Shown: positions 26,259 through 45,140 of the stretch, in pieces
Position numbering within the stretch: the first letter of the stretch is position 1
How the letters are laid out: every line of letters starts with the position of its first letter
NCBI GenBank assembly: GCA_041601615.1
Contig: JBFIHX010000007.1
Coordinates: 87,805-151,804 of the forward strand
Direction of reading: 5' to 3'
DNA: 64,000 nucleotides
From: Thermoplasmatota archaeon
GTDB lineage: Archaea; Thermoplasmatota; E2; JACPAO01; JAHFTW01
The notes under the pieces: model-generated
What the model was told of the DNA's origin: nothing
Database searches by the model: none
Seen by the model: only the letters and a program-made list of their open reading frames with translations
Position numbers and translations under genes: made by a program

Positions 26259-26800
26259 ACATCGAAGTGCTTCGGCTCGGGCACCGCCCACAACGAGACA
26301 AACGCATTACGACCCACGTTTGCCTTACCGCCCGCGCACTCGGCGCCAACCGTGTGTGCATCGCGGAAGAAGACGGCAGCATCGCCACATCCGTTACGGA
26401 TCTCACGGCCCGGTTCGGAGGCAATTTCGTCCTGGAACACAACACCGGCTGGAAAGGCGTGGTGCGTCGCTGGAAAGAGGCAGGGGGCCAAGTTGTGCAC
26501 CTTACCATGTACGGTCGACCCCTCGGCGTTGCTGTGCCGGAGATTCTTGCCCGAGGCTCGGATGTATTGGTGGTCGTGGGCGCCGAAAAGGTTCCCGGAG
26601 ACTTGTACAAACTGGCAGACGAAAACGTCGCGGTCGGCAACCAGCCACACTCGGAGGTCGCTGCATTGGCGCTTCTGATGGATCGGCTGCGGGATGGCGC
26701 TTGGGAGTCGGACGAGTTTGCCGGCGCGGAATTGCGAGTGGTTCCGGAGGCACACGGCAAACGCGTGCTCGGCGCATCGGACGAACCTGAAACAGAGTAG
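26255..26800 (+). CDS. trm56: tRNA (cytidine56-2'-O)-methyltransferase (SPOUT)
   Basis: 'MNIEVLRLGHRPQRDKRITTHVCLTARALGA' is the near-canonical aTrm56 N-terminus. At 181 aa the size is right. A GTGA overlap with ribK gives translational coupling. Confidence 0.9.
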   Translation: MNIEVLRLGHRPQRDKRITTHVCLTARALGANRVCIAEEDGSIATSVTDLTARFGGNFVLEHNTGWKGVVRRWKEAGGQVVHLTMYGRPLGVAVPEILARGSDVLVVVGAEKVPGDLYKLADENVAVGNQPHSEVAALALLMDRLRDGAWESDEFAGAELRVVPEAHGKRVLGASDEPETE

Positions 26801-26865
26801 CAAGCCGACTCCACGGGTATGATGCCAAACCGTTATCCCGACCTCGAAGGTCCCCAAGTTGGACC

Positions 26866-27396
26866 ATGACTGTACGCACGGCGGATTGGATTCCGAGCCT
26901 GGAAGACCCCGAAATTCAGCGCTACCTATTCGAGGAAGTGGGCGAGGAGGGCATGGAGATGTCCAAGTTCCTTCAGGACAATGAACCAATCTCCAGCGTG
27001 GACATTCTCGACCACTACGCCGAGCGCAAGCCGTCCGACGTGCGCAAAGTTCTCTATCGACTCATGGAGGCGCACGCTGCCGAGTACGAGAAGGACACCG
27101 ACAAAGCCGGCTGGGAGACGTTTACCTGGCGCCTAGACTTGGCCGAAGTGGCTTTGATTCTGCGCCGCCGCTGGGCCGATGAATTGGTGCACTTGCAGAA
27201 GCAATTGCGCTTCGAATTGGACCACGAGTACTACGCGTGCGATGACCTGCACCGCCGCATGGTGTTCGAGGATGCGATGGACATCAACTTCCACTGCCCC
27301 GTGTGCCAGAAGCCCATGGAGCCCGTGGACAACGCCATGGTCATTGAGGCACTGCGTGGCCGCGTCCAAGAACTGGAACCGTTCGTCACGGCCTAA
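26866..27396 (+). CDS. tfe: transcription factor E (TFIIE-alpha homolog)
   Basis: An N-terminal winged helix ('ISSVDILDHYAERKPSDVRKVLYRL') is followed by a Zn-ribbon 'YYACDDLHRRMVFEDAMDINFHCPVCQ'. At 176 aa the size is right. Confidence 0.85.
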   Translation: MTVRTADWIPSLEDPEIQRYLFEEVGEEGMEMSKFLQDNEPISSVDILDHYAERKPSDVRKVLYRLMEAHAAEYEKDTDKAGWETFTWRLDLAEVALILRRRWADELVHLQKQLRFELDHEYYACDDLHRRMVFEDAMDINFHCPVCQKPMEPVDNAMVIEALRGRVQELEPFVTA

Positions 27397-27436
27397 AGCC
27401 TGGCGCGCCCTCGTGGCCGCCGCCCCACCCGCGTGG

Positions 27437-27934
27437 GTGCTCGATCATGTGCTTGCCGTCGAAGGCCTCGCGGTCGCCATGGCCATGCGCGCCGAAGAAG
27501 TCGGACTCGAAGTGGACGTGGAACTTGTCAGCACCGGCTCATTGCTGCATGACATCGGTCGAAGCGTGACCCAGGATTTGCACCATGCCCATGTGGGCGC
27601 CGACCTCCTGCGCCAACCGCCGCCCTGGCCAGAACCGGTGTGTCGCATCGCCGAGACGCATACAGGCGCAGGTGTTACGCCCGAGGACGCAACGGCAGCA
27701 GGGTTGCCGGCACGCGACTACATGCCCAGGAGCCTAGAGGAACGCATCGTGGCGCACGCGGACAATTTGTTTTCAGGCACCCGGCGGCTGACGCTTGAAG
27801 AGGTTGTGGCCAAGTACGAAGCGAAGGGACTAGCGGAAGCCAGGGGCCAAATCATCCTTTTGCACCATACTTTATCGTGCAAACTTCGCATGGAAATGGA
27901 TTTAATGCCCATAATTGAACTAGATCACCCTTAG
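27437..27934 (+). CDS. HD-domain (HDIG-type) phosphohydrolase
   Basis: 'GSLLHDIGR' is the HD motif and '...HHAHVGADLL...' gives the additional His. The start is inferred from GTG 27437, with ATG 27479 as the alternative. TFE-HD adjacency is common in archaea. Confidence 0.55.
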   Translation: MLDHVLAVEGLAVAMAMRAEEVGLEVDVELVSTGSLLHDIGRSVTQDLHHAHVGADLLRQPPPWPEPVCRIAETHTGAGVTPEDATAAGLPARDYMPRSLEERIVAHADNLFSGTRRLTLEEVVAKYEAKGLAEARGQIILLHHTLSCKLRMEMDLMPIIELDHP

Positions 27935-27939
27935 CAAGA

Positions 27940-29160
27940 GAGAAAAGAGGTGAATAAACTAGCAGGTTCCGCCGGAACCATATCGGACGCACGGGCCGCC
28001 ACCGCCACCACCACCACCACCGCCGAACAAAGTGGGGCCGCAAGCGCCTTCGCGCATGAAATATACTCCGGTTTCAAGCTGCGTCTCAAAATACCTATAA
28101 TGCCCAGCACAAACGGTTGTACCACCATCCGAATCGCTAACTATGAGAATACACGCAGCATCCCCTTTTATATCGCCATTATTAACATTTGAGTAATCAT
28201 AAAGGCCAATACAGTATCCAATATTATCAGTTTCATCATATTGATCATAGAAATCTACGAAATGGTGGCAGATGCCAAATACATCATCTCGAACCCCGAC
28301 CTTATACAAGCAATTCAAGGGATCAGAAGAGGAAGTCTCTACCGATGGTATCGTAGGAGCAAAGGACCATGGGGCAGGAACATATTGAATGTCCAAACAG
28401 ACCTCATCCGGCGAAACACATGTCACGACCGGGACGGGAATCTCATCCGGGAGAATTCCCGTTACGAACCCTAGGTCGATGGGAATACACGAATTAATGC
28501 GGAACTGATTTTCATCCATCGGCCTTCCGGTGCAGAGCCACCACTCTAAGCCCAATGGGTGGCTGTGAAGACAAATGATGGAGGAACCGCCCCCAACCGC
28601 GTAAGCACTAATGGCCAGGCACAAATTGGTTTCTGCCAAATCTCTTTCGACACAAGTTGCGACAAACCAATAGTAAATACCTTGATTGGGCCATTCAAAC
28701 TCCAAATAATTGCAGTTAATGTCTCGATCTTGGCCTTCCCAAGTGGACGCTTGGGCGGGGCCAGTTGCTGAACTTAGTACCAAGGCAGCTAGAGCCACCA
28801 TCATGATCTTTTTTAACATTGTTACACCTTTTAGTTTTCTATCTACTCATATGTTGCACACAGCACAACATCAAATCCCAATGTTCAGGCGTATAAAAGC
28901 ATTCGCGTAAATTGACATTATTTTTCATGAAGTTCGCCTTGCGAATTTCTCCATCGTTCTTTGCCGAAGGTCGCATTTCGACTGAGTTCGTAGCAGATTT
29001 GAGGATATAACCTGATCACGAATTCAACAGTTCGAATTAAGCCCGTAAATAGTCATAAGTATGTTTATACCCGTCATTGGGACATGCGCGGAGATTTATA
29101 GTCTCCCATCCTCCACTATACAGCTAAAAAACCAAGAAAAATGTATAATTCCAACAGATG
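27940..29160. other. AT-rich (~45% GC) insert within a ~67% GC context; putative horizontally acquired islet
   Basis: Seen directly, for example 'tttatatcgccattattaacatttgagtaatcataaaggccaatacagtatccaatattatcag'. It contains one gene and an AT-rich promoter region with a TTTATA element (rc of 'gtataaaag' near 28885). Confidence 0.6.
27959..28819 (-). CDS. Cys-rich secreted protein (~22 Cys) ending in a Gly10 run; no homolog recognised
   Basis: 'MLKKIMMVALAALVLSSATGPAQAS' is a signal peptide. Cys residues are scattered in CxxC-free patterns. C-terminus '...ACGPTLFGGGGGGGGGGPCVRYGSGGTC*' is encoded by a (GGT)n/(ACC)n tract. Codon usage is AT-shifted relative to neighbours. Confidence 0.6.
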   Translation of the reverse strand: MLKKIMMVALAALVLSSATGPAQASTWEGQDRDINCNYLEFEWPNQGIYYWFVATCVERDLAETNLCLAISAYAVGGGSSIICLHSHPLGLEWWLCTGRPMDENQFRINSCIPIDLGFVTGILPDEIPVPVVTCVSPDEVCLDIQYVPAPWSFAPTIPSVETSSSDPLNCLYKVGVRDDVFGICHHFVDFYDQYDETDNIGYCIGLYDYSNVNNGDIKGDAACILIVSDSDGGTTVCAGHYRYFETQLETGVYFMREGACGPTLFGGGGGGGGGGPCVRYGSGGTC

Positions 29161-29164
29161 AAAG

Positions 29165-29860
29165 CTACCACCGCGTCGTGAACCGCTTCTTCCACAGCGC
29201 CTTCAGGTTGCCAAAGCCGTCGCGCCAGGATTCAATCACCGCGTCGCCGATGCGGGCGTGCAACTCGGAGGGAATCTCGGCAGAGGCCACGTCGCGCCGC
29301 TTGAACGCCTCCAATTTGATTTCCTGACTGAAGGCCATGCCGTCCGGGAGCGATTCGAAGGGAATGCGGTCTAGGGCGCTCCGGCGGATGATCCACATGC
29401 CGCTTTGGCTGTCGCGCACTCGGACCCAGAATAGGTTACGAAGCGTTGCGCTCAGGATGAAGTTGCCAAGGCGGTGCTTGGGGCTCATGCTGCCTTCGTG
29501 GAGGGTGCCGTAGCGGTCGCAGGTCACGAAGTCAAGGTCGTTGTCCAAGAGGTGCCGCACGTACTCGGAGGTCTTGTCGAAAGGATAGGTGCCGTCCGCG
29601 TCGCCGGTTACAATCACGTCGCCCGTTGCGGCAGCGAAACCAGTCTTGTAGGCGCGGCCATAGCCTTTGCGAGGTTCCACGATCACGCGGGCTCCTCGCA
29701 CCTCGGCCTCAGATTGGGTTCGGTCCTTGCTGTTGCCATCGACGACCAGCAACTCCCAAGACCAGCCGGCTTCCTGGAATGCGTCCGTGTCCACGGCGTC
29801 GAGGGTGGGGCCGATGCCTTGTTCTTCGTTCAGAGTCGGGATGACGATGCTTACTTTCAT
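29165..29860 (-). CDS. family 2 glycosyltransferase (dolichyl-phosphate hexose synthase-like)
   Basis: 'VSIVIPTLNEE', 'VVDGNSKDRT' and 'GDADGTY' are the GT2 DxD-type motifs. Confidence 0.8.
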   Translation of the reverse strand: MKVSIVIPTLNEEQGIGPTLDAVDTDAFQEAGWSWELLVVDGNSKDRTQSEAEVRGARVIVEPRKGYGRAYKTGFAAATGDVIVTGDADGTYPFDKTSEYVRHLLDNDLDFVTCDRYGTLHEGSMSPKHRLGNFILSATLRNLFWVRVRDSQSGMWIIRRSALDRIPFESLPDGMAFSQEIKLEAFKRRDVASAEIPSELHARIGDAVIESWRDGFGNLKALWKKRFTTRW

Positions 29861-30684
29861 GCGTGTCCTCCGGGAGGCTTGCGGCCCGCCTTCGCGGAAA
29901 GGTATCCGAGAAATCCGAAACCGGCGCGCAACAGGCCCCAGACGGAGCCACCTTGCAGGCGCAGCATTTCGTGGAGTTTGTATTGGTGCCAGAGCCGGCC
30001 GTGCTTGCGCGTCAGTTGCTTGCGGCCAAATCCGTTCCAGTAGGCTTGGCGAAGGAAGCTGCTGACCGATTCGCGGGCGCGGGCATACACAATGGCGTCC
30101 TTGGCGTGGATGATGGCGGCGCCGGCGGCCACGGCGCGGTAGTTGAGGTCGATGTCCTCGGCAGTAACGAAGCGGGCGTCGAAGCGCCCAAGTTCCTCAA
30201 ACAGCGCGCGTGGGTAGGCCAAGTTGCAACTGGGCCAAGTGGTGTCCTGTCCTTTGTGCGGAAGTTCGACGCGGTGCAGGCGGGTAAACGCCCAGAAGCC
30301 GATTACGTCGGTGCGGCCGGCTACGACGCGGCGCGGGTCGCTTTGCCAAGCATCCCACAGTCGTTGGGTCCAGTTCGCATTGGCAATGCAGTCGCCATCG
30401 ATGAATGCAAGTAGGTCGCCCGTGGCGGCTGCGGCTCCGATGTTGCGCCCTTCGCCGCGGCTGCATGGTTGTTGGATGATGCGCAGCGGCAGGAGTCCTT
30501 CGAAGCTGCGGGCACGTTCCACCGTGTTGTCCGTGCTCATGGCGTCCACGAGGATGACCTCGCGCAGATGCGCCTGGCGCATCAGGCTGTCCAATAGGTG
30601 CCGGATGTGGCGGGATTCGTTGCGAACGGTGACGACCACGCTGACGCCGCCCGACCCTTCGTGCGTCTGGGTCGTTTCGCTCAC
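29857..30684 (-). CDS. family 2 glycosyltransferase
   Basis: 'VSVVVTVRNESRHI', 'VILVDAMSTDNT' and 'FIDGDC' are GT2 motifs. There are 4-nt overlaps on both sides. Confidence 0.8.
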   Translation of the reverse strand: MSETTQTHEGSGGVSVVVTVRNESRHIRHLLDSLMRQAHLREVILVDAMSTDNTVERARSFEGLLPLRIIQQPCSRGEGRNIGAAAATGDLLAFIDGDCIANANWTQRLWDAWQSDPRRVVAGRTDVIGFWAFTRLHRVELPHKGQDTTWPSCNLAYPRALFEELGRFDARFVTAEDIDLNYRAVAAGAAIIHAKDAIVYARARESVSSFLRQAYWNGFGRKQLTRKHGRLWHQYKLHEMLRLQGGSVWGLLRAGFGFLGYLSAKAGRKPPGGHA

Positions 30685-32282
30685 GACTCCTTGACCTCCA
30701 GGTGCTTCTTGGGGCTTTGGCCCGATAGCATGCGCTTGACATCGGCCCAGTCGCCCCGGTGCAGTTCACCAAGGAGCGCCAGCAGCGCGCCGAAAATCAC
30801 GACGGTCATGACGCCATACAGGAGCAAATCCCAAATGCGTAGAATGGGCGGAAGCACGCGCCCCAGCGCCAGGAGCGTTGCGAGTGTCACGCCGGCGGCC
30901 AGAACGTGGATTTGGAGGTGGCGGCTGAAGAACGGGTGTTCGGTCCATTCGTACGCCTTGCCTCGATAAGCGGCAAACAAAACCACACCGGCGGCCAAGG
31001 TTGCGATGCTTGCGCCGACACCACCGAGGCCCCCGAGGCGCACTCCGAACAAGGACTCGGGGATGAGAACGACGTTGAGCACGAGGTTGACGCCGAGTGC
31101 CCAGAGCGCCGCGATGCCTGCAAATTTTTGCTCGCCAAAACCGAAGGCCTTGGTGCGCAGCGGAATCGTCATGGAGATCAGGAGGCTGTTGCCGAGCAGC
31201 AGAACCATCATGGGCGCTCCGGCCAGGAACGCATCGCTGAGCACAATGTGGATCGTGGGTCGTGTCGCGGTCCAGCCCACGAGCAGGACGGGCCAGACGA
31301 GAATGCTGATCCAGCGCTCGGCCTGCAAGACGGTGCGCGCCACGTCCTCGATGCGGCCTTCTTTGTGCAGGCGGCTAATGACGGGAAGCAGCGACACACG
31401 CACGCCGTTGGCAAGAATCAAGACGAATTCGCTGAGCTTGGTGGCTCCCGCGTAGTGGCCCACGTCGGCGTTGGTGCTCCAGAATCCAATCATCACTTGG
31501 TCCATGCGGCTCATGAGCACGGCGGCGGTGCTTACGACCATGATGGGCACCGTGGCATGCATGTAGTCACGGGCCACGTCCATTCGAGGCGCTCCAAAGG
31601 GAACACGGGTGCGCCACAGCAACAACAAACTAAGCACAAGCGCCACTATTTCTCCCGCAAGAAATGCCGCCATGAGCCAGAGCAATCCTTGCCCAAAGCC
31701 CACGGGCCCCGTGGCGCCAAACAAATCAGCGACGTACCGGCTGAGGCCGGGAACCGGACTCCAGCGGCCATGGCTTTCGGCGTAGGCGACCGAGGCAAGC
31801 ACCGTCAGCACGACTGTGACAAGGGTATTGGAAAATAGGGTCCATTCGCGGTACCGGATGCGCTCCAGTCCTCCAAAGGTGTTGACAGCTACATCCTTGA
31901 GACTCTTGGCCACCACCACCGCGACGCCCAGCCACAATGCTTGCACAGTCACGTCTTGCACGCCGCGACCCAGCACGACGAACCAAAGCCAACCAAAACC
32001 CACGGCTAGCAACACAAAGCCGGCAGTGAGCAGCAATTTGAGCGCAAGATAGGTCCCCATGGAGGCGGCCACGTCGTCGCCTCGGGCAATCCGCCGCGTA
32101 TGTGTAATGGGAAATCCAAGCCGGCACACAAGGCCGAAGAGGTACGCGATGGCGAGCACGTACGCCTGCGCGCCCACCAATTCGTCGCCCATGAATCGGG
32201 CCATCATGAACAGTCCGACGTAACCGAGGGCGGCGCCAAGGAGGCTGTTTGCGACCACCAGCACCGACCGACGGGCAAACAT
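30681..32282 (-). CDS. polysaccharide/oligosaccharide flippase (Wzx-like, MOP superfamily)
   Basis: It has 12 or more TM helices and the N-terminus 'SVLVVANSLLGAALGYVGLFMMARFMG' typical of Wzx/RfbX. At 533 aa the size is right. Confidence 0.75.
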   Translation of the reverse strand: MFARRSVLVVANSLLGAALGYVGLFMMARFMGDELVGAQAYVLAIAYLFGLVCRLGFPITHTRRIARGDDVAASMGTYLALKLLLTAGFVLLAVGFGWLWFVVLGRGVQDVTVQALWLGVAVVVAKSLKDVAVNTFGGLERIRYREWTLFSNTLVTVVLTVLASVAYAESHGRWSPVPGLSRYVADLFGATGPVGFGQGLLWLMAAFLAGEIVALVLSLLLLWRTRVPFGAPRMDVARDYMHATVPIMVVSTAAVLMSRMDQVMIGFWSTNADVGHYAGATKLSEFVLILANGVRVSLLPVISRLHKEGRIEDVARTVLQAERWISILVWPVLLVGWTATRPTIHIVLSDAFLAGAPMMVLLLGNSLLISMTIPLRTKAFGFGEQKFAGIAALWALGVNLVLNVVLIPESLFGVRLGGLGGVGASIATLAAGVVLFAAYRGKAYEWTEHPFFSRHLQIHVLAAGVTLATLLALGRVLPPILRIWDLLLYGVMTVVIFGALLALLGELHRGDWADVKRMLSGQSPKKHLEVKES

Positions 32283-32284
32283 GG

Positions 32285-32962
32285 TTACTCAAAGAGCGCG
32301 CGGGCTTGCTCCAGATCCTCGGGAAAATCAATCTCCATGGCTCGAAGTTCCCCCACGGGAACGCAGCGCACGGGCTTGGCGGTGAATGGAAGCATGTGCT
32401 CGATGGCCCGCTCGAAGTACGCCTGCATTTCCAGGTACTCCAAAGCTCGGCGGTACAGGGCTCGATCGTTGGCCGCGATGAAGTTGATGCCCACCGCTTC
32501 GCCCTCGCCGTGCACTTGCTTCGAGAGCGCTTGCAAGCGACCCTCGCGAATGCGGTACTTGATCTCCTCGTCGCCACACACACGCGGATCCACCGCGAGG
32601 CTCGTGGTCTCAGGGTCCGAGGTGACCAGGGGTACAATTTCGTCGTCGAACACCACGTCGCCATTCAAGCAAAGAACGCCGCCTTCTGGCACTGCCGAGA
32701 TTCCGACGAGTGTCGATTTGCCAGTGTTCGTGTCCATGTACATCGGGTTGTCCACGAACCGCACGCCGGGCCTGGCCGCGACCGCCCGCACTTCGTCTCC
32801 CTTGAATCCGGTGACGATCCACACATCCGTGACGCCGTGCGCGGCCAAATTGTCCAATTGGTGCTCGATGATGGTTTTGCCGGCGATTTTGATGAGGGCT
32901 TTGGGAACGTCATGTCCAAGGCGGCTGCCAAAGCCGGCGGCAAGGATCAGTGCATGCACCAT
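32285..32962 (-). CDS. sugar-phosphate nucleotidyltransferase (NTP_transferase fold)
   Basis: 'ALILAAGFGSRLG...PKALI' is the G-x-G-x-R-L nucleotidyltransferase signature. At 225 aa the size is right. Confidence 0.7.
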   Translation of the reverse strand: MVHALILAAGFGSRLGHDVPKALIKIAGKTIIEHQLDNLAAHGVTDVWIVTGFKGDEVRAVAARPGVRFVDNPMYMDTNTGKSTLVGISAVPEGGVLCLNGDVVFDDEIVPLVTSDPETTSLAVDPRVCGDEEIKYRIREGRLQALSKQVHGEGEAVGINFIAANDRALYRRALEYLEMQAYFERAIEHMLPFTAKPVRCVPVGELRAMEIDFPEDLEQARALFE

Positions 32963-33044
32963 ATCCAGTTGGACCCTGTCGTCGCCTTTAAATGACGTGC
33001 CTGAGTCGCGCGCCTAGCGCCCCTCCAGGAGGGCCGCCATGCCT

Positions 33045-33117
33045 GCCTCGGTGGCTTAGTTGGTAGAGCAGTTGATTCGTAATCAACAGGTCGGGGGTTC
33101 AAATCCCCCCCGGGGCT
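33045..33117 (+). tRNA. tRNA-Thr (anticodon CGU)
   Basis: Manual fold: acceptor GCCTCGG/CCGGGGC with one G-U, and T-arm GGGGG-TTCAAAT-CCCCC. The anticodon stem is GTTGA/TCAAC with loop TTCGTAA, giving CGT. Discriminator is T and no CCA is encoded. Confidence 0.85.
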
Positions 33118-33272: not shown

Positions 33273-34649
33273 TTAGTCCCTGATTCCGTCTTCGCATACC
33301 ATCGCCACCGCCTCTCCCTCGGGCAGGTGCGGCGAGTCGATGAGGCGGCAGATGCGCTTGCCACCTTTGGACTTGCGCAAGTAGATGCGGAAGGTGCTGG
33401 TGTGGCCGACGATGTGGCCACCAATGGCGTGCGTCGGGTCGCCAAAGAATGCATCCGGCTTGGAGCTTACTTGGTTGGTGACGATGACGGCGGCATTGTT
33501 GAGGCCCGCGAGTTTCTGCAGGTCGTGCATGTGGCGGTTGAGTTTCTGTTGGCGGTCGGCGAGCATGCCACGACCGATGAATTCGGCGCGGAAGTGGGCC
33601 GTGAGGCTGTCCACGACGATGACGCGGATTGGGAATTGCTTGCAGATTTCTTGGGCGCGTTCGGCCAAGAGCATCTGGTGGTTGCTGTTGAAGGCGCGAG
33701 CAACGTGGATGCGGCCGAGCGCTTCGTGCGGGTCCATGCCGTTGGCGGTTGCCATTTGGATGATGCGCTCAGGCCGGAAGGTGTTCTCGGTGTCGATGAA
33801 CAAGGCGTGGCCGTTCAGGCCGCCGTCTTCTTCGCTGCGCTGGACGTTGACACAGAGCTGGTGGGCAAACTGGGTCTTGCACGATCCGAATTCTCCAAAG
33901 AACTCCGTGATGCACTGGGTCTCGACGCCGCCACCCATCAGTTCGTCAAAGGACTTGGAACCTGTGTGGATTTTGTTGACCGTGCTTCGTCGTTCAAGCA
34001 CCGTGATGCCGGATTCGAAGCCACCCACGTCTGCGAGTTTGCGGGCGGCATTGATGATTTTCTGGGCGACTCCTTCGCCCACGTCGCACTTGTCGGCCAA
34101 TTCCTTGGGGCTCGCGACGGCGATGCTCATGAGATCCTCGAAGCCGGCTTCCTTGAGCTTGTCTGCGGTGGCGGGGCCGACTCCGGGTAGGTCGTCGACG
34201 GTCATGCTGATGACTGCTTCTTGGGCAGCTTCAGGCACTTGGGCGTCGACGGGGTGTTCGGCGACGGAGGGCAGGCCGAGGATGTTTCGAGCGTCGTCGA
34301 TGGTTTTGCGTGCGACGGCGCGGCTTAGGCCGGCGAATTCCTTGATGTCCTCGGGGCTTGCCTTGGCGATGGATTCGACGGTTTCGAAGCCGCCACCGCG
34401 GAGTTTGTCGGCCTTCTGGGTGTTCATGGTGGGCAGGTCTTCGACGGCAATGCCGCCGTGGGCTTCCATGAGGCTCTTGGCATTGGCAATGATGGTGGCG
34501 GCGGTGGATGCAGGGAAACCGGTCTTGGCTGCAAGGTCTTCGGGAGTGGTCTCCACAATGAGGGTGACGCTTCCGAGGCCGGCTTCTGCGAGTTTTTCGG
34601 CTTTGGTGGCGCCGACGCCTGCAATCTGGGTGAGCGGCATCTTAGACAT
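33273..34649 (-). CDS. radA: DNA repair and recombination protein RadA with N-terminal extension carrying two extra HhH modules
   Basis: Walker A 'GEFGSCKTQ' and Walker B 'VIVVDSL' form the RecA-family core. The canonical '[20 protein letters not shown]...IAVASPKEL' HhH is preceded by '[20 protein letters not shown]' and '[27 protein letters not shown]'. The start is refined to MSKMP (34649); the upstream track ORF extension is non-coding-like. Confidence 0.9.
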
Positions 34650-35036
34650 GGGGTTCAACCCGACCAGTGTGCTGCCCATCATCAATGCAAGGGAGGGACG
34701 AGTGAATGTACTCGGGGACGGGAACAAGACGCGGCGCGAGGAGGGGGCGGATGGGGAGCAGAGGTGGGAACGGAGGAGGGGGCGGAGGAGGGAGCGGAGG
34801 GAGGAGCGGATAGGTGCACAACTGCAACGACGGTACCCGCGCACCGCGAGAAGGAAAGAAACTCGAACGGGCATCCGGTGGTTCTGGACCTCGGCTCTTG
34901 GTGGACTCGCCCCCGCCCGTCCAATCGCCCTGTCCCCCGGCCCGATGTGCAAAATAGTCCCGGGCTCAAGAATGCCTAGCCGCCGGGTGCTGCCGGTGCG
35001 CACCATCGAGCCTTAGCTTCGGCTTCGGTCCCGCAG

Positions 35037-35940: not shown

Positions 35941-36045
35941 CCCGCCCGGCCCCCGCAATCGTTCCTGCAATCGTTCCTGCATACGTTCCCGCAAACATCC
36001 CCTCCATCGTCCCCGCGAATACCCCTGCAATCGACCCTGACTGAT
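35941..36045. repeat. degenerate 12-bp tandem array (~8 units, consensus CC[CT]GCAATCGTT) in a CA-rich spacer
   Basis: 'cccgcaatcgttc ctgcaatcgttc ctgcatacgttc ccgcaaacatcc cctccatcgtcc ccgcgaataccc ctgcaatcgacc' is seen directly. It lies between the HTH_10 regulator gene and the secreted-protein gene. Confidence 0.6.
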
Positions 36046-36339
36046 CCCCCGCTCAGCCTTGGCGCTGGCCCCGCTTGTGTCCCCGATTGTGTCCCCGCTC
36101 CCATCCAGGCAGAGGCCCGCACCAGAGCCCACACGCCAGGACACATACACATCTCCCCATCGAACCAATCCATCCATTTGTCGAAGCTTTCGAGCATCAA
36201 TTTTCAAGCAATTTTCGGGCACCGGACCCAAACGCCCAAGGGGCCCCACACACCCACAGGGGACTCCGACAGCCGCACATGTACGGGTCGTAGAATGATT
36301 ATGTCGAACGCCCACCCAATGCACCTTGAGGTGGTCCAC

Positions 36340-37092
36340 ATGACCCAAAAAACAAGCTCCCACGCTCCGGCCCCACCCCGAACACCGGCCCACGGCCACG
36401 GCACACGCACCACGCGGACCGCCGCGCTCCTCGTCTTTGCCGCCATCGCCTTTGCACCCACCATTCCCGCCCAACCAGACACCTTGGACCCAACCTGCTT
36501 CGAACCAGGCATGAACGTTCAATGCAACGAATTTGGCTCCATCATGATGGAAAACCAACGCGACATCCGAGGCGAACCCATCCTCATCAACGTCACCGCC
36601 ATCCTGCACACCGTCCACCTGGACGCCGACGCACGCTGGATCATGTTCAGCGTCCGCCACAGCCCCGAAGACGGCAGCAGCCCCATCTCCATCGCACCCC
36701 TCAGCTTCACCAGCCCCTTCGGCGACATCATCACCTCCAGCGTCGACCAAGCAACACCCAGCGAAGTCAATTTCTGGGTCCATGTCATCGACGTACCCCT
36801 CGACACCCCGACAACCATTGAAGTCCTCGTCGGTGCAAGCGAACGCGGCGCCTTCCGCTTAGAAGCCCTGGTCATGGCCTTCGACCGAGCCTACGAGCCC
36901 ATCAAAGGCGCCGACGGAACGGACCAATCCTTGTTCTCGTTCACCCTCCTGGGTGTCAACGGCGAGACCAAGCGGACCGCCACCGCAAGCACCGGCGAGG
37001 ACAAGTTCCGCGCCCCCGGCCCCGGAGCCGCCCTCACCTTCGGCGCCCTCCTTGCCATCGCCGCACTCGTCACACGGAGGCGCCTCGGATGA
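36340..37092 (+). CDS. secreted protein with PGF-CTERM-like tail
   Basis: Start at ATG 36340 (alternative 36295). The signal region is '...TRTAALLVFAAIAFAPTIPAQ'. C-terminus '...FRAPGPGAALTFGALLAIAALVTRRRLG*'. The upstream 465 nt of the track ORF is low-complexity and treated as non-coding. Confidence 0.6.
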   Translation: MTQKTSSHAPAPPRTPAHGHGTRTTRTAALLVFAAIAFAPTIPAQPDTLDPTCFEPGMNVQCNEFGSIMMENQRDIRGEPILINVTAILHTVHLDADARWIMFSVRHSPEDGSSPISIAPLSFTSPFGDIITSSVDQATPSEVNFWVHVIDVPLDTPTTIEVLVGASERGAFRLEALVMAFDRAYEPIKGADGTDQSLFSFTLLGVNGETKRTATASTGEDKFRAPGPGAALTFGALLAIAALVTRRRLG

Positions 37093-37754
37093 GCCCCCCC
37101 GACCGCCGCACCAGTCCCGTAGGCAACCAATTGCTCGAAATCGTGCGCACCCAACCCGGCATCCACTTCCGAGCCCTCGAACGCGCCGCCGAACTACACT
37201 CCGCCGGCCAACTGCGCCACCACGTCGACCGCCTCCTCCACAAAGGAGCCCTCATCGAAGTGCCCGACGGCGGCTACACGCGCTACTTCGTCGCCAACGA
37301 ACACGACCGCCGCCTACGCCCACGCCTAGCACGATTCGCCCGCCCCATCCCCCGCCGCATCGGCATCCTCCTGCTCGAACAAAGCCTCAACCGCACCGAA
37401 CTACGCCACCGCCTACGCTGCGCCGACTCCACCCTCGGATACTACCTCAAACGCATGGAAAAAGAGGGAGACATCATCAAGTGCAAAGGCCGAACCTGCT
37501 GCCACTACCGACTCGCCGACGCCGACATTCTCCGCGAGGTGTTCAAAGTGCCCCGCCCCGTCCTCGGCGCCCTCGAACCCGCCACCGGGCCCCGCGCAAC
37601 CCAAACACCTCCCAGGAAATCCGACGCGCAACCCACGCCAACCACCCCGACCACCCCAAACCCACCACCCACACAACCGCCCCGAGGGACCCCCTGGAAC
37701 CGCCCCGCCCCAACCCGCCGCAGCGTGACCAACCAGGAGCTGGTCAGCCGTTGA
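37089..37754 (+). CDS. tandem winged-helix DNA-binding protein with Pro/Thr-rich tail
   Basis: Two wHTH units are present: 'GIHFRALERAAELHSAGQLRHHVDRLLHKGALIEV' and 'LNRTELRHRLRCADSTLGYYLKRMEKEGDIIKCK'. An ATGA overlap with the upstream gene gives translational coupling. Confidence 0.55.
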   Translation: MSPPDRRTSPVGNQLLEIVRTQPGIHFRALERAAELHSAGQLRHHVDRLLHKGALIEVPDGGYTRYFVANEHDRRLRPRLARFARPIPRRIGILLLEQSLNRTELRHRLRCADSTLGYYLKRMEKEGDIIKCKGRTCCHYRLADADILREVFKVPRPVLGALEPATGPRATQTPPRKSDAQPTPTTPTTPNPPPTQPPRGTPWNRPAPTRRSVTNQELVSR

Positions 37755-39052
37755 CCCACCCACAAACCCTGCCCAACCGAGCACGAAACCTCCTACAAAA
37801 CGCCCAGCACCGCACCACGTTCTACCTCCTCATGAACAACGCCATGGCCGCCGGCACCGGGCTGCTCTTCTGGTTCATCATGGTCCGCATCGCAGACATC
37901 CCCACAGGCCAAATCGGCGTCGGATACTCCATCATCGCACTCGGCACCACCGTCGCCCTCGTAGCCAAAGGCGGCCTCGACACCGCACTCCTGCGCAACG
38001 TCCCCAAAGCCAGCGACCGCGAAGGACTCCGCCTCCTCGGCGTCGGCATCCTCGTCGGCGCCAGCGCCGCCATCCTCCTCTCCGGCAGCCTCGCCCTCGC
38101 CGCCAGCACAGGAGGTCCCCTACCACAACTCGCCCGCTGGGGCTGGCTCCTCGTCGCCATCATTGCCATGCTCATGGTCGGCACCTCCCTGCAAGATGCC
38201 TGGTTTCTGGCCCAAGGCGACGCACGATCCACCTTCCGCCGCAACGTCGTCTTCAGCAGCGCACGGATCATCCTACCCCTCCCCATCCTCGCCCTCGCAC
38301 CACCCGAACCCGTCCCCCTCATCTGGCTGCTCGCCCTCATCGCCGCCACTCTCACCGGCATCGCACTCGCCCGCCACCGCCCCCACCACGACGGCGGCTC
38401 CGTACCCCGCCGCGCATTCCTAGGATGCGCACTGCGCAACATCACCAGCAGCGCCGCCGAATTCCTACCCGGCCTCCTGCTCGTCCCCCTCGTACTTGCC
38501 ACCCAAGGCCCCGCCGCCGCCGGCTACTTCGGCATGGCCTGGACCGCTGCCGCCCTCCTATTGCTCGGCTCCGCCACCATCGGACGAAGCGCCCTCACAT
38601 CCATGGTACGCGACGAACCACCCGCCACCGCCGTACGCCGCGCCGCCAACCAAGCCCTGTTGGTGCTCGGCCCCGTCGCCGTACTCGGCGCCCTCCTTGC
38701 CCGCTTTGTCATGGCCATCTTCGGCACCGACTATGCCACCGAATCCGCCCCCTCCTTCGCCATCCTCTGCGCAAGCACCCTATTCGTCGCCCCCTCCTTC
38801 CTCTACCTCGCATACCTACGCGCCCGCGATCGGCCCGCAACCCTCCTGCTGTTTCCCTTAGCCATGATCGCCGTCCTCTTCCTGCTCGCGCCGCCGCTCG
38901 CCCTCCTCTTCGGACTCGCCGGCGTCGCCCTCGCATGGCTCCTAGCCAACGCCCCCTTCGGCATCTTTGCCCTCTGGCGCCTCAGCCGCATCGCAAAGGA
39001 GGTGACAACCCATGCTACCCCGAATCTCTGTGGTGATCCTCACCCTGAATGA
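37751..39052 (+). CDS. polysaccharide biosynthesis membrane protein (Wzx-like flippase, MOP superfamily)
   Basis: It has 12 or more TM helices, and 'FYLLMNNAMAAGTGLLFWFIMVRIADIPTGQIGVGYS' resembles the Wzx N-terminal region. TTG 37751 (a TTGA overlap with the upstream gene) is the inferred start; the conservative alternative is ATG 37832. Confidence 0.6.
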   Translation: MTHPQTLPNRARNLLQNAQHRTTFYLLMNNAMAAGTGLLFWFIMVRIADIPTGQIGVGYSIIALGTTVALVAKGGLDTALLRNVPKASDREGLRLLGVGILVGASAAILLSGSLALAASTGGPLPQLARWGWLLVAIIAMLMVGTSLQDAWFLAQGDARSTFRRNVVFSSARIILPLPILALAPPEPVPLIWLLALIAATLTGIALARHRPHHDGGSVPRRAFLGCALRNITSSAAEFLPGLLLVPLVLATQGPAAAGYFGMAWTAAALLLLGSATIGRSALTSMVRDEPPATAVRRAANQALLVLGPVAVLGALLARFVMAIFGTDYATESAPSFAILCASTLFVAPSFLYLAYLRARDRPATLLLFPLAMIAVLFLLAPPLALLFGLAGVALAWLLANAPFGIFALWRLSRIAKEVTTHATPNLCGDPHPE

Positions 39053-40190
39053 AGCCCGCAACATCACAGACTGCCTGCAAGCACTCGCCACCCAAGACAA
39101 CCACGGCTTCGAAGTCATTGTCGTGGACGCAGCCAGCACCGACGACACCGTGGCCCGTGTTCGCGCCCTGCAAAACTCCTTCCCCGTCCCCCTGCGCATC
39201 GAAGCCTCCCCCCACCGACTCCCAATCGGCGAAGCACGCAACCTCGGCGTAGCCCTCGCCGACCACCCCGCCATCGCATTCATGAGCGCCGACGTCGAAC
39301 CACGCCCCGACTGGATCAGCCGCGCCCGACACCACCTCCAACACTACGCCATGGTGTTCGGACGACAACTCCACGCACCACAACACTGGACCGTCGCCGC
39401 CAGCGTGCGCGGACTCCGCTACAACTTCCCATCCTCACCCGTCGCAAACCCACTCCCCCTCTGCTCCAACGTCGCCAGCGCCTTCGACCGACACATCCTG
39501 ACCGCACACCCCTTCGAGCCCAACGCTGACGCCGCCGAAGACCTCCTACTCGCCCTGCGGGCCGCCGCCGACGGACACCAAGCCACCTACGACCCCGACC
39601 TCATCGTACGCCACCACGACATCCAAACCATGAGCGAAGAACTTCGCAAAGTACGCCGCGAAGGACGCGCCTGGGGCCGACACCACCACGAACTCGGACC
39701 CCTGCCCGCCCTGCTTGCCTGGGCCGCCGCCCTCGTCCTCGCCGCCCCCTTCGTACGCCTCGCACCACGCATCCTCGGCCCCGCCTACACCGGAATCCTC
39801 TGGGCCCCCGCCATGCGCCGAGCCCGCCGCCGACGCCACACCATGCCCGCCGATGCGCTGCTCGCAGGCACCCTCGCAAGCCCCACCTACGACCTCGCCT
39901 TCCTACTCAACTACCTCCGCGGCCGCGCCAACCCGGACGCCCCTCCACGCCCCGGACTCGCCCCGCGACCCACCCCGCCGCCGCCGCATCCATCCACCCA
40001 TCCCCGTCCAACCTCATCCCCTCCACCCCCACAGCCCTCCACCCAAACCTCAACCCCACCCTCCACCCCATCATCCACCCAAGCCTCTGCCCCACCTTCC
40101 ACCCCACCCTACGCCCCATCATCTACCCCACCTTCTACCTCGCCCTCTGCCCACCCCACCAGCCAAACCGACCAGGAGACCACAACATGA
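39012..40190 (+). CDS. family 2 glycosyltransferase with ~95-aa Pro/Ser/Thr-rich C-terminal tail
   Basis: 'ISVVILTLNEARNI', 'VIVVDAASTDDT' and 'MSADVEP' are GT2 motifs. The tail 'PRPTPPPPHPSTHPRPTSSPPPPQPSTQTSTPPSTPSST...' is in frame up to a stop overlapping the next start. Confidence 0.75.
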   Translation: MLPRISVVILTLNEARNITDCLQALATQDNHGFEVIVVDAASTDDTVARVRALQNSFPVPLRIEASPHRLPIGEARNLGVALADHPAIAFMSADVEPRPDWISRARHHLQHYAMVFGRQLHAPQHWTVAASVRGLRYNFPSSPVANPLPLCSNVASAFDRHILTAHPFEPNADAAEDLLLALRAAADGHQATYDPDLIVRHHDIQTMSEELRKVRREGRAWGRHHHELGPLPALLAWAAALVLAAPFVRLAPRILGPAYTGILWAPAMRRARRRRHTMPADALLAGTLASPTYDLAFLLNYLRGRANPDAPPRPGLAPRPTPPPPHPSTHPRPTSSPPPPQPSTQTSTPPSTPSSTQASAPPSTPPYAPSSTPPSTSPSAHPTSQTDQETTT

Positions 40191-41557
40191 CCCACGCCAC
40201 CGTATTCATCATCATGGACGCCGGACGCTCCGACTACGTCCGCCCCGAAACCATGCCTTTCATCCACGGCCTCGCCCAACAAAGTGTGCGCAGCGCCTTC
40301 GACAGCCCACCCGGATTCGCCCAACGCACCGTACTCTTCAGCGGCCGCTACCCCGACACCAGCGGCAACTTCAGCGCCTTCGTTTTCGACCCCGAACACA
40401 GCCCCTTCCAATGGGTGCGCAAACTCGGCCCCGCCCGCGCCCTCATCCGACCCCGCAAAGCCCTCTTCCCCACCCGCATCGCCGTCAACAAAACCACCAA
40501 GTGGATCACCAAGGCCTACCACACCGACCCCGCCTGGATCCCCCCCAAATTCCTACCCTTCTTCCGCCCCTGCGAAGACATGCGCCCCCTCTACGAACCC
40601 GGCGCCCTCGGAGCCAGCAGCATCTTCGACCTCTGCCGCAAACACGACCTCAAATTCCGCTACCTCGCCCACCCCGTCAGCGGCGATGACGAAGAAATCC
40701 ACGAAATCCTCACCCGCGAACTACGCGCCGGCGCCGACTACGACCTCTACGTTGCCCAATTCAGCGTCACCGACGAAAAAGGACACAAACACGGCCCCTT
40801 CAGCGACGCAATGCAGAAAGGCTTCCTACGCGACCTCGACCAAAAAATCGCCAGCATCCACGCCGCCCTCAGCGCCGGCTACGACGACTGGGACCTCTTC
40901 CTGTGCGGCGACCACGGCATGGCCCCCGTCGAACGCAAAGTCAACGTCCTCAAAGCCCTAGCAAAAGCCGACGCCAAACCCGCACGCGACTACGTCGTCT
41001 TCGTCAACAGCACCCTCGCCGTCTTCTGGTACCTCACCGACAAAGGCCGCCAAGCCATCGAACAAGTACTCCCCCACGTCCCCGGCACCCACGTCGTCGA
41101 CGAAGAAGAACGCAAACGCCGCCGCATCCCCACCGACCGCCAATGGGGCGACCGCATGCTCGCCGCCGAACCAGGCGTCCTGTTCTGGCCCGACTACTTC
41201 CATGTCACCGACTCCAAAATCGTCGGCATGCACGGCTACCTCGACAAACGCCACGAAACCTTGGGCATGGGCGTTCTCGCATCCAACAACGGCCACACCC
41301 GACCCCGCGACGCCGGCGCCCGACCCCTCGTAGACGTCTTCCCCACCCTCTGCGACCTCCTAGGCCTCCCAACACCACCCGGCCAAGAAGGAACCAGCAT
41401 CCTGCACAAGTACGACGAAACGCCAGAACCACCAGCCACACCCAGCACCGAAACCAGCTCCCAAACGGGGCCCGAACCCGACGCCCCCGCAACCGAGCAA
41501 CTCATCGCCGCACCCACCAAAACGCCGACCCAAACCAGGACAACTCCAGCCACCTAG
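40187..41557 (+). CDS. alkaline-phosphatase-superfamily protein (type I phosphodiesterase/nucleotide pyrophosphatase-like) with PT-rich tail
   Basis: 'VFIIMDAGRSDY' is the N-terminal metal-ligand Asp motif and 'LFLCGDHGM' the distal His motif of AP-superfamily enzymes. Confidence 0.7.
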   Translation: MTHATVFIIMDAGRSDYVRPETMPFIHGLAQQSVRSAFDSPPGFAQRTVLFSGRYPDTSGNFSAFVFDPEHSPFQWVRKLGPARALIRPRKALFPTRIAVNKTTKWITKAYHTDPAWIPPKFLPFFRPCEDMRPLYEPGALGASSIFDLCRKHDLKFRYLAHPVSGDDEEIHEILTRELRAGADYDLYVAQFSVTDEKGHKHGPFSDAMQKGFLRDLDQKIASIHAALSAGYDDWDLFLCGDHGMAPVERKVNVLKALAKADAKPARDYVVFVNSTLAVFWYLTDKGRQAIEQVLPHVPGTHVVDEEERKRRRIPTDRQWGDRMLAAEPGVLFWPDYFHVTDSKIVGMHGYLDKRHETLGMGVLASNNGHTRPRDAGARPLVDVFPTLCDLLGLPTPPGQEGTSILHKYDETPEPPATPSTETSSQTGPEPDAPATEQLIAAPTKTPTQTRTTPAT

Positions 41558-41568
41558 GAGGCAAAACC

Positions 41569-42624
41569 ATGCCCTACACGGCACACGACACCCCCGCCAT
41601 CGTCACCCGCATCCAATCCGACCTCCACCACATCGTACAAGTCGTTCGCAGCGCCGATCCCGGCCTACAAAGCCTCGTACTCACCGGCGGATTCGCACGC
41701 GGAGAAGGATCCGTACGAGGCGGCGAGCCCCAGAACGACTACGACCTCATCGCCATCCGCACCCGACGACACGGCAGGCCTTCCCCCTCCTACGACGCGC
41801 TTCGAGCCCGCCTCGAAAACGACCTCGGCCTCCACATGGACCTCGCCCCCGTCGGCGCCTGGAGACTCTCCTGGACCGCCCCCTCCATCTTCTGGTACGA
41901 AACCGCCCAACGCGGCCAAGTGCTCTACGGCAAAAACCTCCTCCACCGCATCCCCCGACGCAGCCCCCAAGACCTCGAACCCACCGAAGCGCTACGCCTA
42001 CTCGTCAACCGCGCCGCCGGCCTCCTACTCGCCACCCAAGACCATGACGACGAAAAACGACTGCAAGCAAGCAAAGCCCTCCTTGCCACCCTCGACACAC
42101 ACTTGCTCGCCGCCGGCCACTTCGCACCCAGCCAAACCGAACGCTGGAACCTCCTTCACCAACTACACCAACAAGGCAACGCCCCCGCCGCCCTTACCTA
42201 CATCCACGACGAACTGCACTGGGCCTTCGCCCACAAAACCAGCCCCGACACCACGCCCCACATGGACGCAAACACAGCCTGGCAAAGCGCCGCCCGCGCC
42301 CTAATCGACGCCATCCCCACCGCACTTCGACACGCCGCCCTCCCCTGCCTCGACGCCTACAAAACCCACGACGGCCTCCTCGACCGCCTCCACTTCTGGC
42401 TCCACGCAAACGAAGTGCCCGGCGCCAACCGAAGCAGCCCCCACCCCACAGGCCACGTCCGCGTCGCCACCCTCCGCCTCCTCGAAGCATCCCTCGACGG
42501 CAACGTTCCAGCCTCCGCCGCCCACACCCACCTAGATCCAATCCTTGGCCGCCGCAACCACGAAAGCACCCCCGGCGGCGCCCTCGGCCTCCTATCCGCC
42601 CTGCGCCGTGCGACCCTGCAATAA
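41569..42624 (+). CDS. nucleotidyltransferase-domain protein (Pol-beta-like NTase fold)
   Basis: 'LVLTGGFARGEGS...NDYDLIAI' is the G[GS]x9-13Dx[DE] NTase signature. The rest of the protein is helical. Confidence 0.5.
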   Translation: MPYTAHDTPAIVTRIQSDLHHIVQVVRSADPGLQSLVLTGGFARGEGSVRGGEPQNDYDLIAIRTRRHGRPSPSYDALRARLENDLGLHMDLAPVGAWRLSWTAPSIFWYETAQRGQVLYGKNLLHRIPRRSPQDLEPTEALRLLVNRAAGLLLATQDHDDEKRLQASKALLATLDTHLLAAGHFAPSQTERWNLLHQLHQQGNAPAALTYIHDELHWAFAHKTSPDTTPHMDANTAWQSAARALIDAIPTALRHAALPCLDAYKTHDGLLDRLHFWLHANEVPGANRSSPHPTGHVRVATLRLLEASLDGNVPASAAHTHLDPILGRRNHESTPGGALGLLSALRRATLQ

Positions 42625-43138
42625 CTCCCCCGCGTCGCCGCCACTCCCCCCGCCCCCAACCCAGCACCAAGCCAGCACCAAGCGCACACCAACATCGTCC
42701 CTCAACCACCATCCCCAGCCACACCCCAGTGCCTCCCGATGCAAACCCCGCATCAGGAACCCTTCATGCACCAAAACAACCACCGACACACAAGCAACGG
42801 ACGCAGCCACCCCACGCGCCCCCAACGACCCGCACGAAATACAGACACCGGCCCCGCCCGCGCGGACCACTCCAACCACGCCGCCGACGACGAAAGCACC
42901 ACCACCCAGCGGCAAATCCACCGCAGCTACTTCTGAACACCCGATCCCCATTCTTCCCCCCTTGCGCCGCACCCCACACCCGGGAAGACCCGCGGCAACC
43001 CATTGCAATAACTAGGAAACAAACCTCCCACGCCCGGTGAAAACCACGCCTTCCAACCGGCTCCAAAATCGTCCCCAAACCACCATGGTTCTCCCGCAAC
43101 AAGTGATTCTCAGCGCCCACTGGCGTTAGGAAATCACC

Positions 43139-43786: not shown

Positions 43787-43883
43787 AGCAAATCGCCACT
43801 CAAGACCCCCTGACCCCCACCTTCTCGATTCCACCTTGCACCTCCCGATCCCATTCGGGCGGATGTGGCCCCTTCGGGCGTTG

Positions 43884-43928
43884 CCACCACCACCACCACC
43901 ACCACCACCACCACCACCACCACCACCA
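43884..43928. repeat. (CCA)15 perfect trinucleotide microsatellite, intergenic
   Basis: 45 nt of uninterrupted 'cca' units are seen directly. They lie between the Cys/His-repeat gene and the second archaeosortase-like gene. Confidence 0.85.
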
Positions 43929-44109
43929 ATCCTGTCCCTGAACCCCCATCGCCTTCGCCACCCCATCCGTACGCAGTGCGCCCGCCAGAGAGGATGACCA
44001 TGCCACGAACACCACCCACCACCACACTCCACACCCGCCTGCAAACCTGGAACCGCCCACAAAACCACCGACGCAATCGCCCCACAACCAACCCAGGAGG
44101 CAAACCCGC

Positions 44110-44994: not shown

Positions 44995-45140
44995 GCCGCC
45001 CACTACGGCCCCGACCTCGGTCCCGAGCCCTCTCCCATCCCCCCCTTTGCGACCACCCCAACGACCCTGTCCCTGAATCTCCATGCCACGCGGAGACGAG
45101 TTCCACCCAGGCTCGCACACAGCGACCAGGAGACAGACAC

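Follow-up and report, generated by a model that had tools for sequence, protein, structure and literature searches.

A candidate variable slot beside a glycosylation gene cluster in a Thermoplasmatota archaeon, occupied by a gene for a divergent secreted cysteine-rich protein

The DNA considered here (the window) is a stretch of 64,000 nucleotides from an uncultured Thermoplasmatota archaeon, corresponding to positions 87,805 to 151,804 of the forward strand of contig JBFIHX010000007.1 (GenBank assembly GCA_041601615.1). It contains an AT-rich segment with a single gene, referred to below as the target gene, which encodes a secreted acidic protein of 286 residues. This gene lies between the 3′ ends of two conserved genes, one for an HD-domain hydrolase, which is convergent with it, and one for a GT2 glycosyltransferase; it is located downstream of, and on the same strand as, the GT2-GT2-flippase cluster to which the latter belongs (Table 1). 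The host is a Thermoplasmatota archaeon, and the neighboring genes are archaeal, encoding a CTP-dependent riboflavin kinase, aTrm56, TFE, the HD-domain hydrolase and RadA. As discussed below, we lean towards the view that this site is a fixed variable slot harboring a hyper-divergent family of secreted proteins, and that the allele found here was imported by recombination from a relative of lower GC content.

An earlier reading of the locus, made from the sequence without database searches (the sequence-only reading), described an AT-rich insert of about 45% GC at positions 27940-29160 in a background of about 67% GC. The composition of the insert is borne out, its GC content being 45.5%, which is about the minimum of the window; the background was overestimated, since the whole 64-kb window has 62.4%. 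The lowest 1221-bp stretch in the 64 kb has 45.3% GC, which is about 4.6 standard deviations (SD) below the mean for 1221-bp windows (62.3%, SD 3.7). The target open reading frame (ORF) itself has 48.4% GC, with a GC fraction at third codon positions (GC3) of about 0.46-0.47, and the 345-bp spacer upstream of it has only 38.6% GC. Comparison with the other genes of the window, as had been proposed, gives the same picture: GC3 is 0.46 for the target gene versus 0.73 +/- 0.07 for the others (z = -3.8), and the codon-adaptation index of the target gene is the lowest among the window genes (0.349; z = -2.3). Deviation in GC content, GC3 and codon usage, together with a sharp right boundary, is what is expected of horizontally acquired DNA.

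The left end of the low-GC tract is not at 27940, as had been proposed, but within the HD gene, at about 27845-27866. The final 90 bp of this gene have 40% GC versus 65% for the remainder, and GC3 drops from 0.71 to 0.36 after codon 170 (at about 27866; Fisher p = 0.003, for a breakpoint picked post hoc). When the HD protein is compared with that of the closest relative (L002, described below), residues 1-160 are 84% identical, whereas identity in the last 32 residues is 37.5%. Nevertheless, the tail retains L169, H170, L173 and L177, the invariant tail positions in an alignment of 20 members (A2), and ends at the usual point. The AT-rich codons therefore encode a homologous 3′ end of the HD gene, which travels with the gene for the Cys-rich protein. 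This AT-rich stretch of the HD gene, whose tail peptide reads LLHHTLSCKLRMEMDLMPIIELDHP, is where the imported tract probably begins on the left. On the right, both the similarity to L002 and the high GC3 return exactly at the GT2 stop codon (29165), and the GC3 of the GT2 gene holds at 0.8-1.0 up to this codon. These junction positions were taken from BLAST, pairwise alignment and GC3 analysis, because the global MAFFT alignment placed the gap wrongly.

The target gene is real. Its stop-free run extends over 295 codons, far beyond the maximum of 222 (mean, 95) observed in 2000 shuffled sequences, and the ORF is therefore not a product of chance. The same target allele is present in all three assemblies of the organism. 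Logan contig L001 corresponds to positions 27511-29023 at 100% identity, and contig L095 of GCA_041635295.1 corresponds to positions 26727-28565, the sole difference in these 1.8 kb being a synonymous single-nucleotide change (GGC/GGT) in codon 215 of the target gene (position 28175). Because three assemblies span the left junction, this junction is not an assembly artefact.

Because the host is an archaeon, the relevant promoter signal is a TATA box, and the TTTATA element pointed out in the sequence-only reading is indeed present, as part of a TTTTATA string upstream of the target gene; several further TATA-like strings occur in the AT-rich spacer. Oligo-T tracts just past the GT2 stop codon resemble a terminator, and the T-rich spacer between the convergent stop codons of the HD and target genes is a possible archaeal terminator of the latter. 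No Rfam match was found in the upstream spacer and its folding score is marginal (z = -2.1), which gives no evidence of an RNA element.

The N-terminus of the target protein, MLKKIMMVALAALVLSSATGPAQA followed by Ser, reads as a Sec-type signal peptide, and no twin-arginine motif is present in this leader. The mature protein (261 residues) is acidic, with 34 Asp and Glu versus 10 Lys and Arg residues, and contains all 16 Cys residues, where about 22 had been counted earlier. The signal peptide and the end of the protein, ten Gly residues followed by PCVRYGSGGTC, are as previously described, and neither a membrane anchor nor a transmembrane segment is found in the protein. The mature part contains no N-x-S/T sequon, a lack that is not significant, because only about one would be expected by our own estimate (11 Asn residues, about 12% Ser and Thr); N-glycosylation was accordingly rejected as a tie between the protein and the adjoining glycosylation cluster. 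The C-x-H-x-H motif in the N-terminal module is a candidate metal-binding or active site, and the PCVRYGSGGTC tail could possibly form a terminal disulfide loop. The length of the Gly10 tract is identical in the window, L001 and L095, and its (GGT)5 run could be prone to slippage. By eye, the protein seemed to consist of two duplicated halves, but BLASTP rejected this (E = 43). AlphaFold models have low pLDDT (predicted local distance difference test) scores, 44.8 from the single sequence and 38.4 with a two-sequence alignment, and give no more than a hint of two beta-rich modules with a Pro-rich linker between them.

The same slot was compared in related genomes, for which loci were retrieved through the adjacent HD protein; the relatives are metagenome-assembled genomes (MAGs) of Thermoplasmatota archaea, and identities are given relative to the window proteins. 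In L002 (TFE 92%, HD 76%, GT2 88%), the slot is empty and the convergent HD and GT2 genes overlap by 17 bp; no relative closer than this 92% in TFE was found. The outgroup L003 (TFE 67%, HD 56%, GT2 73%) is likewise empty, with a 17-bp overlap, and L091 (TFE 63%, partial; HD 65%; GT2 67%, partial) has a 104-bp gap without a gene. The slot is occupied in L006 (GCA_028289805.1; TFE 79.5%, HD 66%, GT2 77%) by a gene for a protein of 264 residues with a signal peptide and many Cys residues, and in L090 (Logan SRR15827331; TFE 80%, HD 66%, GT2 81%, partial) by a gene for a protein of 135 residues with a signal peptide and eight Cys residues, both in the same orientation as the target gene. The order Trm56-TFE-HD ... 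GT2-GT2 is kept in L002, L003 and L006, and partly in L090. Flanks of conserved order and orientation, between which some relatives carry a divergent homolog and others carry no gene, are the arrangement of a replacement-type islet. The presence/absence comparison suggested in the sequence-only reading thus gives a mixed answer: L002, L003 and L091 are empty, but L006 and L090 are occupied by remote homologs.

The kinship of the window protein with the L090 protein is solid, the two being reciprocal best phmmer matches among 4368 ORFs (E = 4-5e-7). Kinship with the L006 protein is weaker by sequence alone (BLASTP E = 2e-4 over 149 residues), and position, orientation, signal peptide and Cys register agree with it. 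When profiles were built from two of the sequences, the third member was the top non-self match in all cases, with E values of 0.17, 0.055 and 5.8e-4 (4368 ORFs). Residues that do not vary in the three-way alignment (A4) are C36, C56, C67, C83, H85, H87, C96, C111 and C141, whereas C134 is shifted by one column in L006. The C-x-H-x-H motif takes the forms CLHSH, CFHAH and CLHLH in the three members. The window and L006 proteins carry a second Cys-containing module beyond the eight-Cys core, and have in common a terminal C-V-x-[YF]...G-x-C tail, PCVRYGSGGTC aligning with the L006 terminus CVVFAGITLSGYC; the L006 protein lacks the Gly10 tract, where the alignment has a gap of about 40 residues. 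Identity within the family is only about 25-28%, compared with 66-80% for the flanking genes.

Low GC content is not a fixed property of this family, because the L090 copy is host-like (71% GC, GC3 0.91) and the L006 copy is only moderately lowered (GC3 0.71, versus about 0.9 in its own HD gene). In L006 and L090, the spacer between this gene and GT2 is GC-rich and shorter, at about 100 bp. The sequence-only reading held that orthologs of the same low GC content at this position in all relatives would point to an ancestral gene of atypical composition; homologs are found in only some relatives, and without the same low GC content.

Several further observations concern the slot and its occupants. 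In the empty slots (L002, 6884-6900; L003, 7601-7617), the last 17 bp of the HD gene run antisense to the C-terminal codons of GT2, and the overlap yields similar extensions of the HD tail, ending in TSAS (L002) and TSGS (L003). The mature chains of the L006 (1640-2434, minus strand) and L090 (1183-1590, minus strand) proteins are predicted to begin with His-Asp-Pro after an AxA-type site, which recalls the N-terminus of a histidine brace, whereas the mature window protein begins with Ser (STWEG). A histidine brace like that of lytic polysaccharide monooxygenases was rejected for this reason, and because no family match was obtained. In more distant relatives, the position directly after HD is occupied by other proteins with signal peptides. 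Those of L092 (6069-7236) and L094 (8343-8936) are signal-peptide proteins without a Pfam domain, which end in PGPALPLL, a hydrophobic stretch and RRR, resembling a PGF-CTERM anchor; genes of like size and position are present in L097 (5359-6545). That of L096 (3578-4258) is an acidic secreted protein with DTDGD repeats, a C-terminal hydrophobic stretch and an RRRK tail. Across the group, the position after HD seems to be a collecting point for surface and secreted proteins.

No homolog emerged from very large sequence collections. The protein retrieved nothing but itself when a set of 5.8 billion proteins was searched through a word index, both with its sequence and with a two-sequence profile, and when 1.84 billion representatives were searched exhaustively with phmmer. 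Degenerate-pattern scans of viral and metagenome contigs, and tblastn and blastn searches of phage and plasmid records, gave nothing; a viral or plasmid source thus finds no link in these searches. A metagenome scan with the HD alignment yielded 80 loci, all with at most 54% identity and none with a family member. The apparent ORFan status arises because the similarity between homologs (at most 27 bits) misses the threshold in searches of billions of sequences. As had been noted earlier, the target protein has no recognizable domain: NCBIfam, PADLOC and a profile search of PDB gave nothing, and matches in Pfam and PHROGs are sub-threshold. The best Pfam match is the spider-toxin family m_DGTX_Dc1a_b_c (E = 0.046; 14.8 bits versus a cut-off of 27; 32 residues). 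With this match below threshold and the PDB search empty, assignment to a knottin, an inhibitor cystine knot or another known disulfide-rich toxin fold is not supported.

Insertion of an island mediated by an integrase or targeted to a tRNA is not indicated. In agreement with the sequence-only reading, no integrase family was matched among the Pfam-scanned genes at 22.5-35 kb, the segment itself being a single ORF; no tRNA is located at the borders; and flanking direct or inverted repeats are absent beyond short matches at chance level, leaving no att-like repeats. The only tRNA gene of the window, for tRNA-Thr (CGT; 33045-33117), is 3.9 kb away across three or four genes, beyond the GT2 and flippase genes as previously stated.

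On balance, we lean towards a fixed variable slot whose present occupant arrived by recombination with a relative of lower GC content. Among a clade of Thermoplasmatota, this slot lies between the 3′ end of the HD-hydrolase gene and that of the last GT2 gene of the glycosylation cluster; in some lineages it holds a gene for a Sec-secreted, disulfide-rich protein, and in others it is empty. The AT-rich segment at about 27,845-29,164 would be one allele of this slot. The imported unit would comprise the last 22-30 HD codons, the target gene and its 345-bp promoter spacer, one crossover having occurred within HD, while the opposite junction coincides exactly with the stop codon of GT2. The donor would be a relative with the same locus, and recombinational import is considered most likely because base composition and codon usage fit a genome of about 45-50% GC. 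The protein would be exported by the Sec pathway, lose its signal peptide by cleavage after AQA and adopt, outside the cell, a fold of beta-rich, disulfide-stabilized modules, possibly binding a metal through C-x-H-x-H. It would probably act in cell-surface or intercellular interactions (recognition, antagonism or interplay with viruses) that select for rapid diversification; such a role is suggested by the rapid divergence, the gain and loss, and the possible exchange of alleles.

Several points weigh against import into a fixed slot. The signal in the HD tail involves only about 22-30 codons in the least conserved part of the HD family, and its breakpoint was chosen post hoc. The right junction (29024-29164, the final 141 bp before GT2) is covered by the window contig only. 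No lower-GC donor with this allele or this HD tail occurs among the matches listed. Sequence alone ties the L006 protein only weakly to the family (E = 0.05-0.2 in the database of 4.4k ORFs), the empty slot of L002 could equally be the result of loss, and no homology or structure backs a function (AlphaFold pLDDT, 45 and 38).

A resident gene that has undergone local AT decay is a possible, if doubtful, alternative. The gene would have been present in the common ancestor of the window lineage, L002, L006 and L090, inherited vertically and lost in L002, and AT-biased mutation would have acted on a fast-evolving, weakly constrained, rarely recombining accessory gene and the DNA next to it, without any transfer. 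Consistent with this, the lineages with homologs in this slot bracket that of the window, the L006 copy is also GC-poorer than its own flanks (GC3 0.71 versus about 0.9), the other accessory island of the window is GC-poor as well, and the listed matches include no donor. However, the step in composition is large (GC3 0.46 versus 0.73) and sharp at the GT2 stop codon, and the wholly host-like L090 copy (GC3 0.91) indicates that the family is not inherently AT-rich. Decay would also have to affect the synonymous sites of the constrained HD tail and yet halt exactly at GT2, and the deletion in L002 would need to have brought HD right up to the GT2 stop codon, as in the outgroup L003.

The sequence-only reading proposed recent horizontal acquisition of an effector-, bacteriocin- or adhesin-like protein, labels that are conjectural. 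Its acquisition part agrees with the foreign composition and with the absence of the gene from L002 and L003, but the notion of an isolated, unrelated effector gene does not agree with the homologs in the same slot of L006 and L090. A stricter form of it, a one-off recent insertion from a virus, a plasmid or an unrelated organism, bringing a toxin-, bacteriocin- or adhesin-like effector unrelated to the genes of the relatives, is decidedly unlikely. The atypical composition, the ORFan status in very large databases, the absence from the closest relative and the sub-threshold spider-toxin match would fit it; that match spans only 32 residues, though, and no phage, plasmid, viral-contig, PHROGs or PADLOC match, no integrase, tRNA or repeat at the borders, and no immunity, transporter or maturation gene alongside was found. 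An artefact, either an assembly chimera with lower-GC DNA or an ORF arisen by chance in AT-rich non-coding DNA, is hardly credible: MAG contigs can be chimeric, the short independent contigs L001 and L095 end inside or near the AT-rich segment and 141 bp before GT2 are present in the window contig only, but the left junction reads alike in three assemblies, L006 and L090 repeat the order HD, Cys-rich gene, GT2, and the ORF is far longer than chance allows, with a coherent signal peptide and conserved Cys positions.

A bolder reading can be proposed, which we regard as unlikely. The proteins may constitute an undescribed archaeal family of secreted, disulfide-rich, possibly metal-binding polymorphic factors of antagonism or recognition, working like an archaeocin, as a decoy for viruses or as a marker of self and non-self. 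Homologous recombination in the conserved HD and GT2 flanks would exchange their alleles among Thermoplasmatota lineages. Such a locus would correspond, with its single gene, to a minimal version of polymorphic effector or VARTIG-type loci.

Table 1. Coordinates of the features of the slot and its flanks in the window.
Feature	Coordinates	Strand	Evidence or remark
HD-domain hydrolase gene, 192 aa	27356-27934	+	Left flank, convergent with target; Pfam HD 5e-17; identical to P0002
AT-rich 3′ end of HD gene, probable left end of imported tract	27845-27934	+	GC, GC3, drop in identity to L002
Spacer between convergent stop codons, 24 bp	27935-27958	.	T-rich on minus strand; read from sequence
Target gene, 286-aa secreted acidic protein with 16 Cys	27959-28819	-	Single ORF of the segment
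C-terminal tail PCVRYGSGGTC (C277...C286)	27962-27994	-	Aligns with end of L006 protein
Gly10 tract, residues 266-275	27995-28024	-	GGT/GGC codons including (GGT)5 run
Conserved N-terminal module, residues 26-143, 8 Cys	28391-28744	-	Core common to three family members, alignment A4
C-x-H-x-H motif (C83 L H85 S H87)	28559-28573	-	Invariant in three members
Signal peptide of Sec type (predicted), residues 1-25 (MLKK, hydrophobic core, AQA before Ser)	28745-28819	-	Sequence, hydropathy profile
AT-rich spacer, 345 bp, with oligo-T tracts (29126-29141) and promoter region	28820-29164	-	Right boundary of tract at 29164/29165
Shine-Dalgarno-like AGGTG, 5 nt before ATG	28825-28829	-	Read from sequence
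TATA-box-like TTTTATA, 72 nt before ATG, candidate archaeal promoter	28892-28898	-	Read from sequence
GT2 glycosyltransferase gene, 231 aa	29165-29860	-	Right flank; Pfam Glycos_transf_2 4e-24; last gene of GT2-GT2-flippase cluster
Second GT2 gene	29857-30684	-	Glycosylation cluster
Polysacc_synt flippase gene	30681-32282	-	Glycosylation cluster, which ends at 32282

Between the flippase and tRNA-Thr genes, an ORF of 248 residues (32249-32995, plus strand) with host-like codon composition overlaps the start of the flippase gene by 34 nt; it lacks any Pfam match. Beyond the tRNA gene, a RadA/Rad51 homolog of 577 residues (33273-35006, minus strand) carries an N-terminal extension of about 250 residues with extra helix-hairpin-helix repeats (three HHH_5 stretches), whereas archaeal RadA usually has about 320 residues.

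A second low-GC island is located at 45960-48100 (50-56% GC, GC3 0.48-0.55), which suggests that the accessory genes of this genome are AT-richer in general. It contains a gene for an AbiEii-type nucleotidyltransferase toxin (46093-47313, minus strand; Pfam AbiEii 2e-13; PADLOC AbiEii), overlapped by an upstream gene for a protein of 280 residues without a family match (47166-48008, minus strand), which is probably an AbiEi-like partner. Directly before this island, a gene on the plus strand (45060-45962) encodes a signal-peptide protein without a Pfam match, which ends in PVFPGVFAGVMAAVVGVVAYGGLRRKT, a PGF-CTERM-like sorting tail. GC skew is very strong, from -0.3 to -0.46 at 36000-46000 and from +0.2 to +0.42 at 48000-60000, and the minimum of the cumulative skew falls at about 47-48 kb, where gene orientation changes and the AbiE island is located. 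This pattern may mark a replication landmark or only reflect the composition of the coding strand. In the ORF at 48140-49522, the N-terminal region is rich in Pro and Thr, and an unusually high GC fraction at second codon positions (0.56-0.60) is seen in the large ORFs at 36.9-42.6 kb.

Little is known about secretion in uncultured Thermoplasmatota, or about their interplay with viruses and neighbors. A gene whose rate of evolution exceeds that of its flanks several-fold, which is gained and lost at a fixed slot and is apparently exchanged between lineages, points to diversifying or conflict-driven selection. As to method, a protein that is an ORFan among billions of sequences can have homologs that are visible through synteny only. 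If the C-x-H-x-H motif and the eight-Cys core prove to define a new extracellular metal-binding or toxin fold, an extra family would be added to the sparse catalogue of archaeal secreted effectors; at present, the gene encodes an uncharacterized hypothetical protein in a flexible islet, which is common in MAGs.

Four known systems invite comparison. Like PGF-CTERM/archaeosortase proteins, the target is a secreted archaeal protein encoded next to glycosylation genes; assignment to these substrates was rejected, because its end, G10-PCVRYGSGGTC, has neither a hydrophobic stretch nor a basic tail, and the L006 and L090 proteins are alike in this respect. Cys-rich archaeocins such as halocin C8 are exported, with a precursor of about 280 residues and many Cys residues. 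The target protein resembles halocin C8 in being an exported archaeal protein of similar precursor length with many Cys residues, but its leader is of the Sec rather than the twin-arginine type, and its Cys residues are spread over the whole protein rather than gathered in a short C-terminal peptide. A halocin-type label is not supported, because there is no match in Pfam, NCBIfam or PDB and no RR motif, the neighbors are HD and GT2, and no immunity or transport genes are found nearby.

The VARTIG systems of Thermococcales, which are characterized by a hypervariable Ig-domain module (Makarova et al., 2021; PMC8416519), share with the present locus a hypervariable archaeal secreted or surface protein, apparent recombination between related genomes and a suspected role in conflict or self/non-self recognition. 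In contrast to VARTIG, the target contains no Ig or other Pfam domain, is a single gene without a downstream cassette and belongs to another phylum, and the evidence for recombination at the present locus is compositional only.

The closest parallel in arrangement may be drawn with islands GI1/DV2 of Haloquadratum walsbyi, in which divergent genes for cell-surface glycoproteins are swapped in conserved synteny by 'deletion-coupled insertion' (PMC3119063). Both loci have conserved flanks, divergent homologous genes for secreted or surface proteins at one site and differences in presence and absence, and both lie beside glycosylation genes without an integrase or tRNA signature. Unlike the Haloquadratum islands, which extend over tens of kb, the present segment comprises one gene and about 1.3 kb; MAGs related at the genus or family level, not strains, are compared here; and the target protein is no S-layer glycoprotein, having neither an N-x-S/T sequon nor an anchor. 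The flexible type of locus is thus already known, whereas the tiny, fast-evolving family of secreted Cys-rich proteins that occupies it is new.

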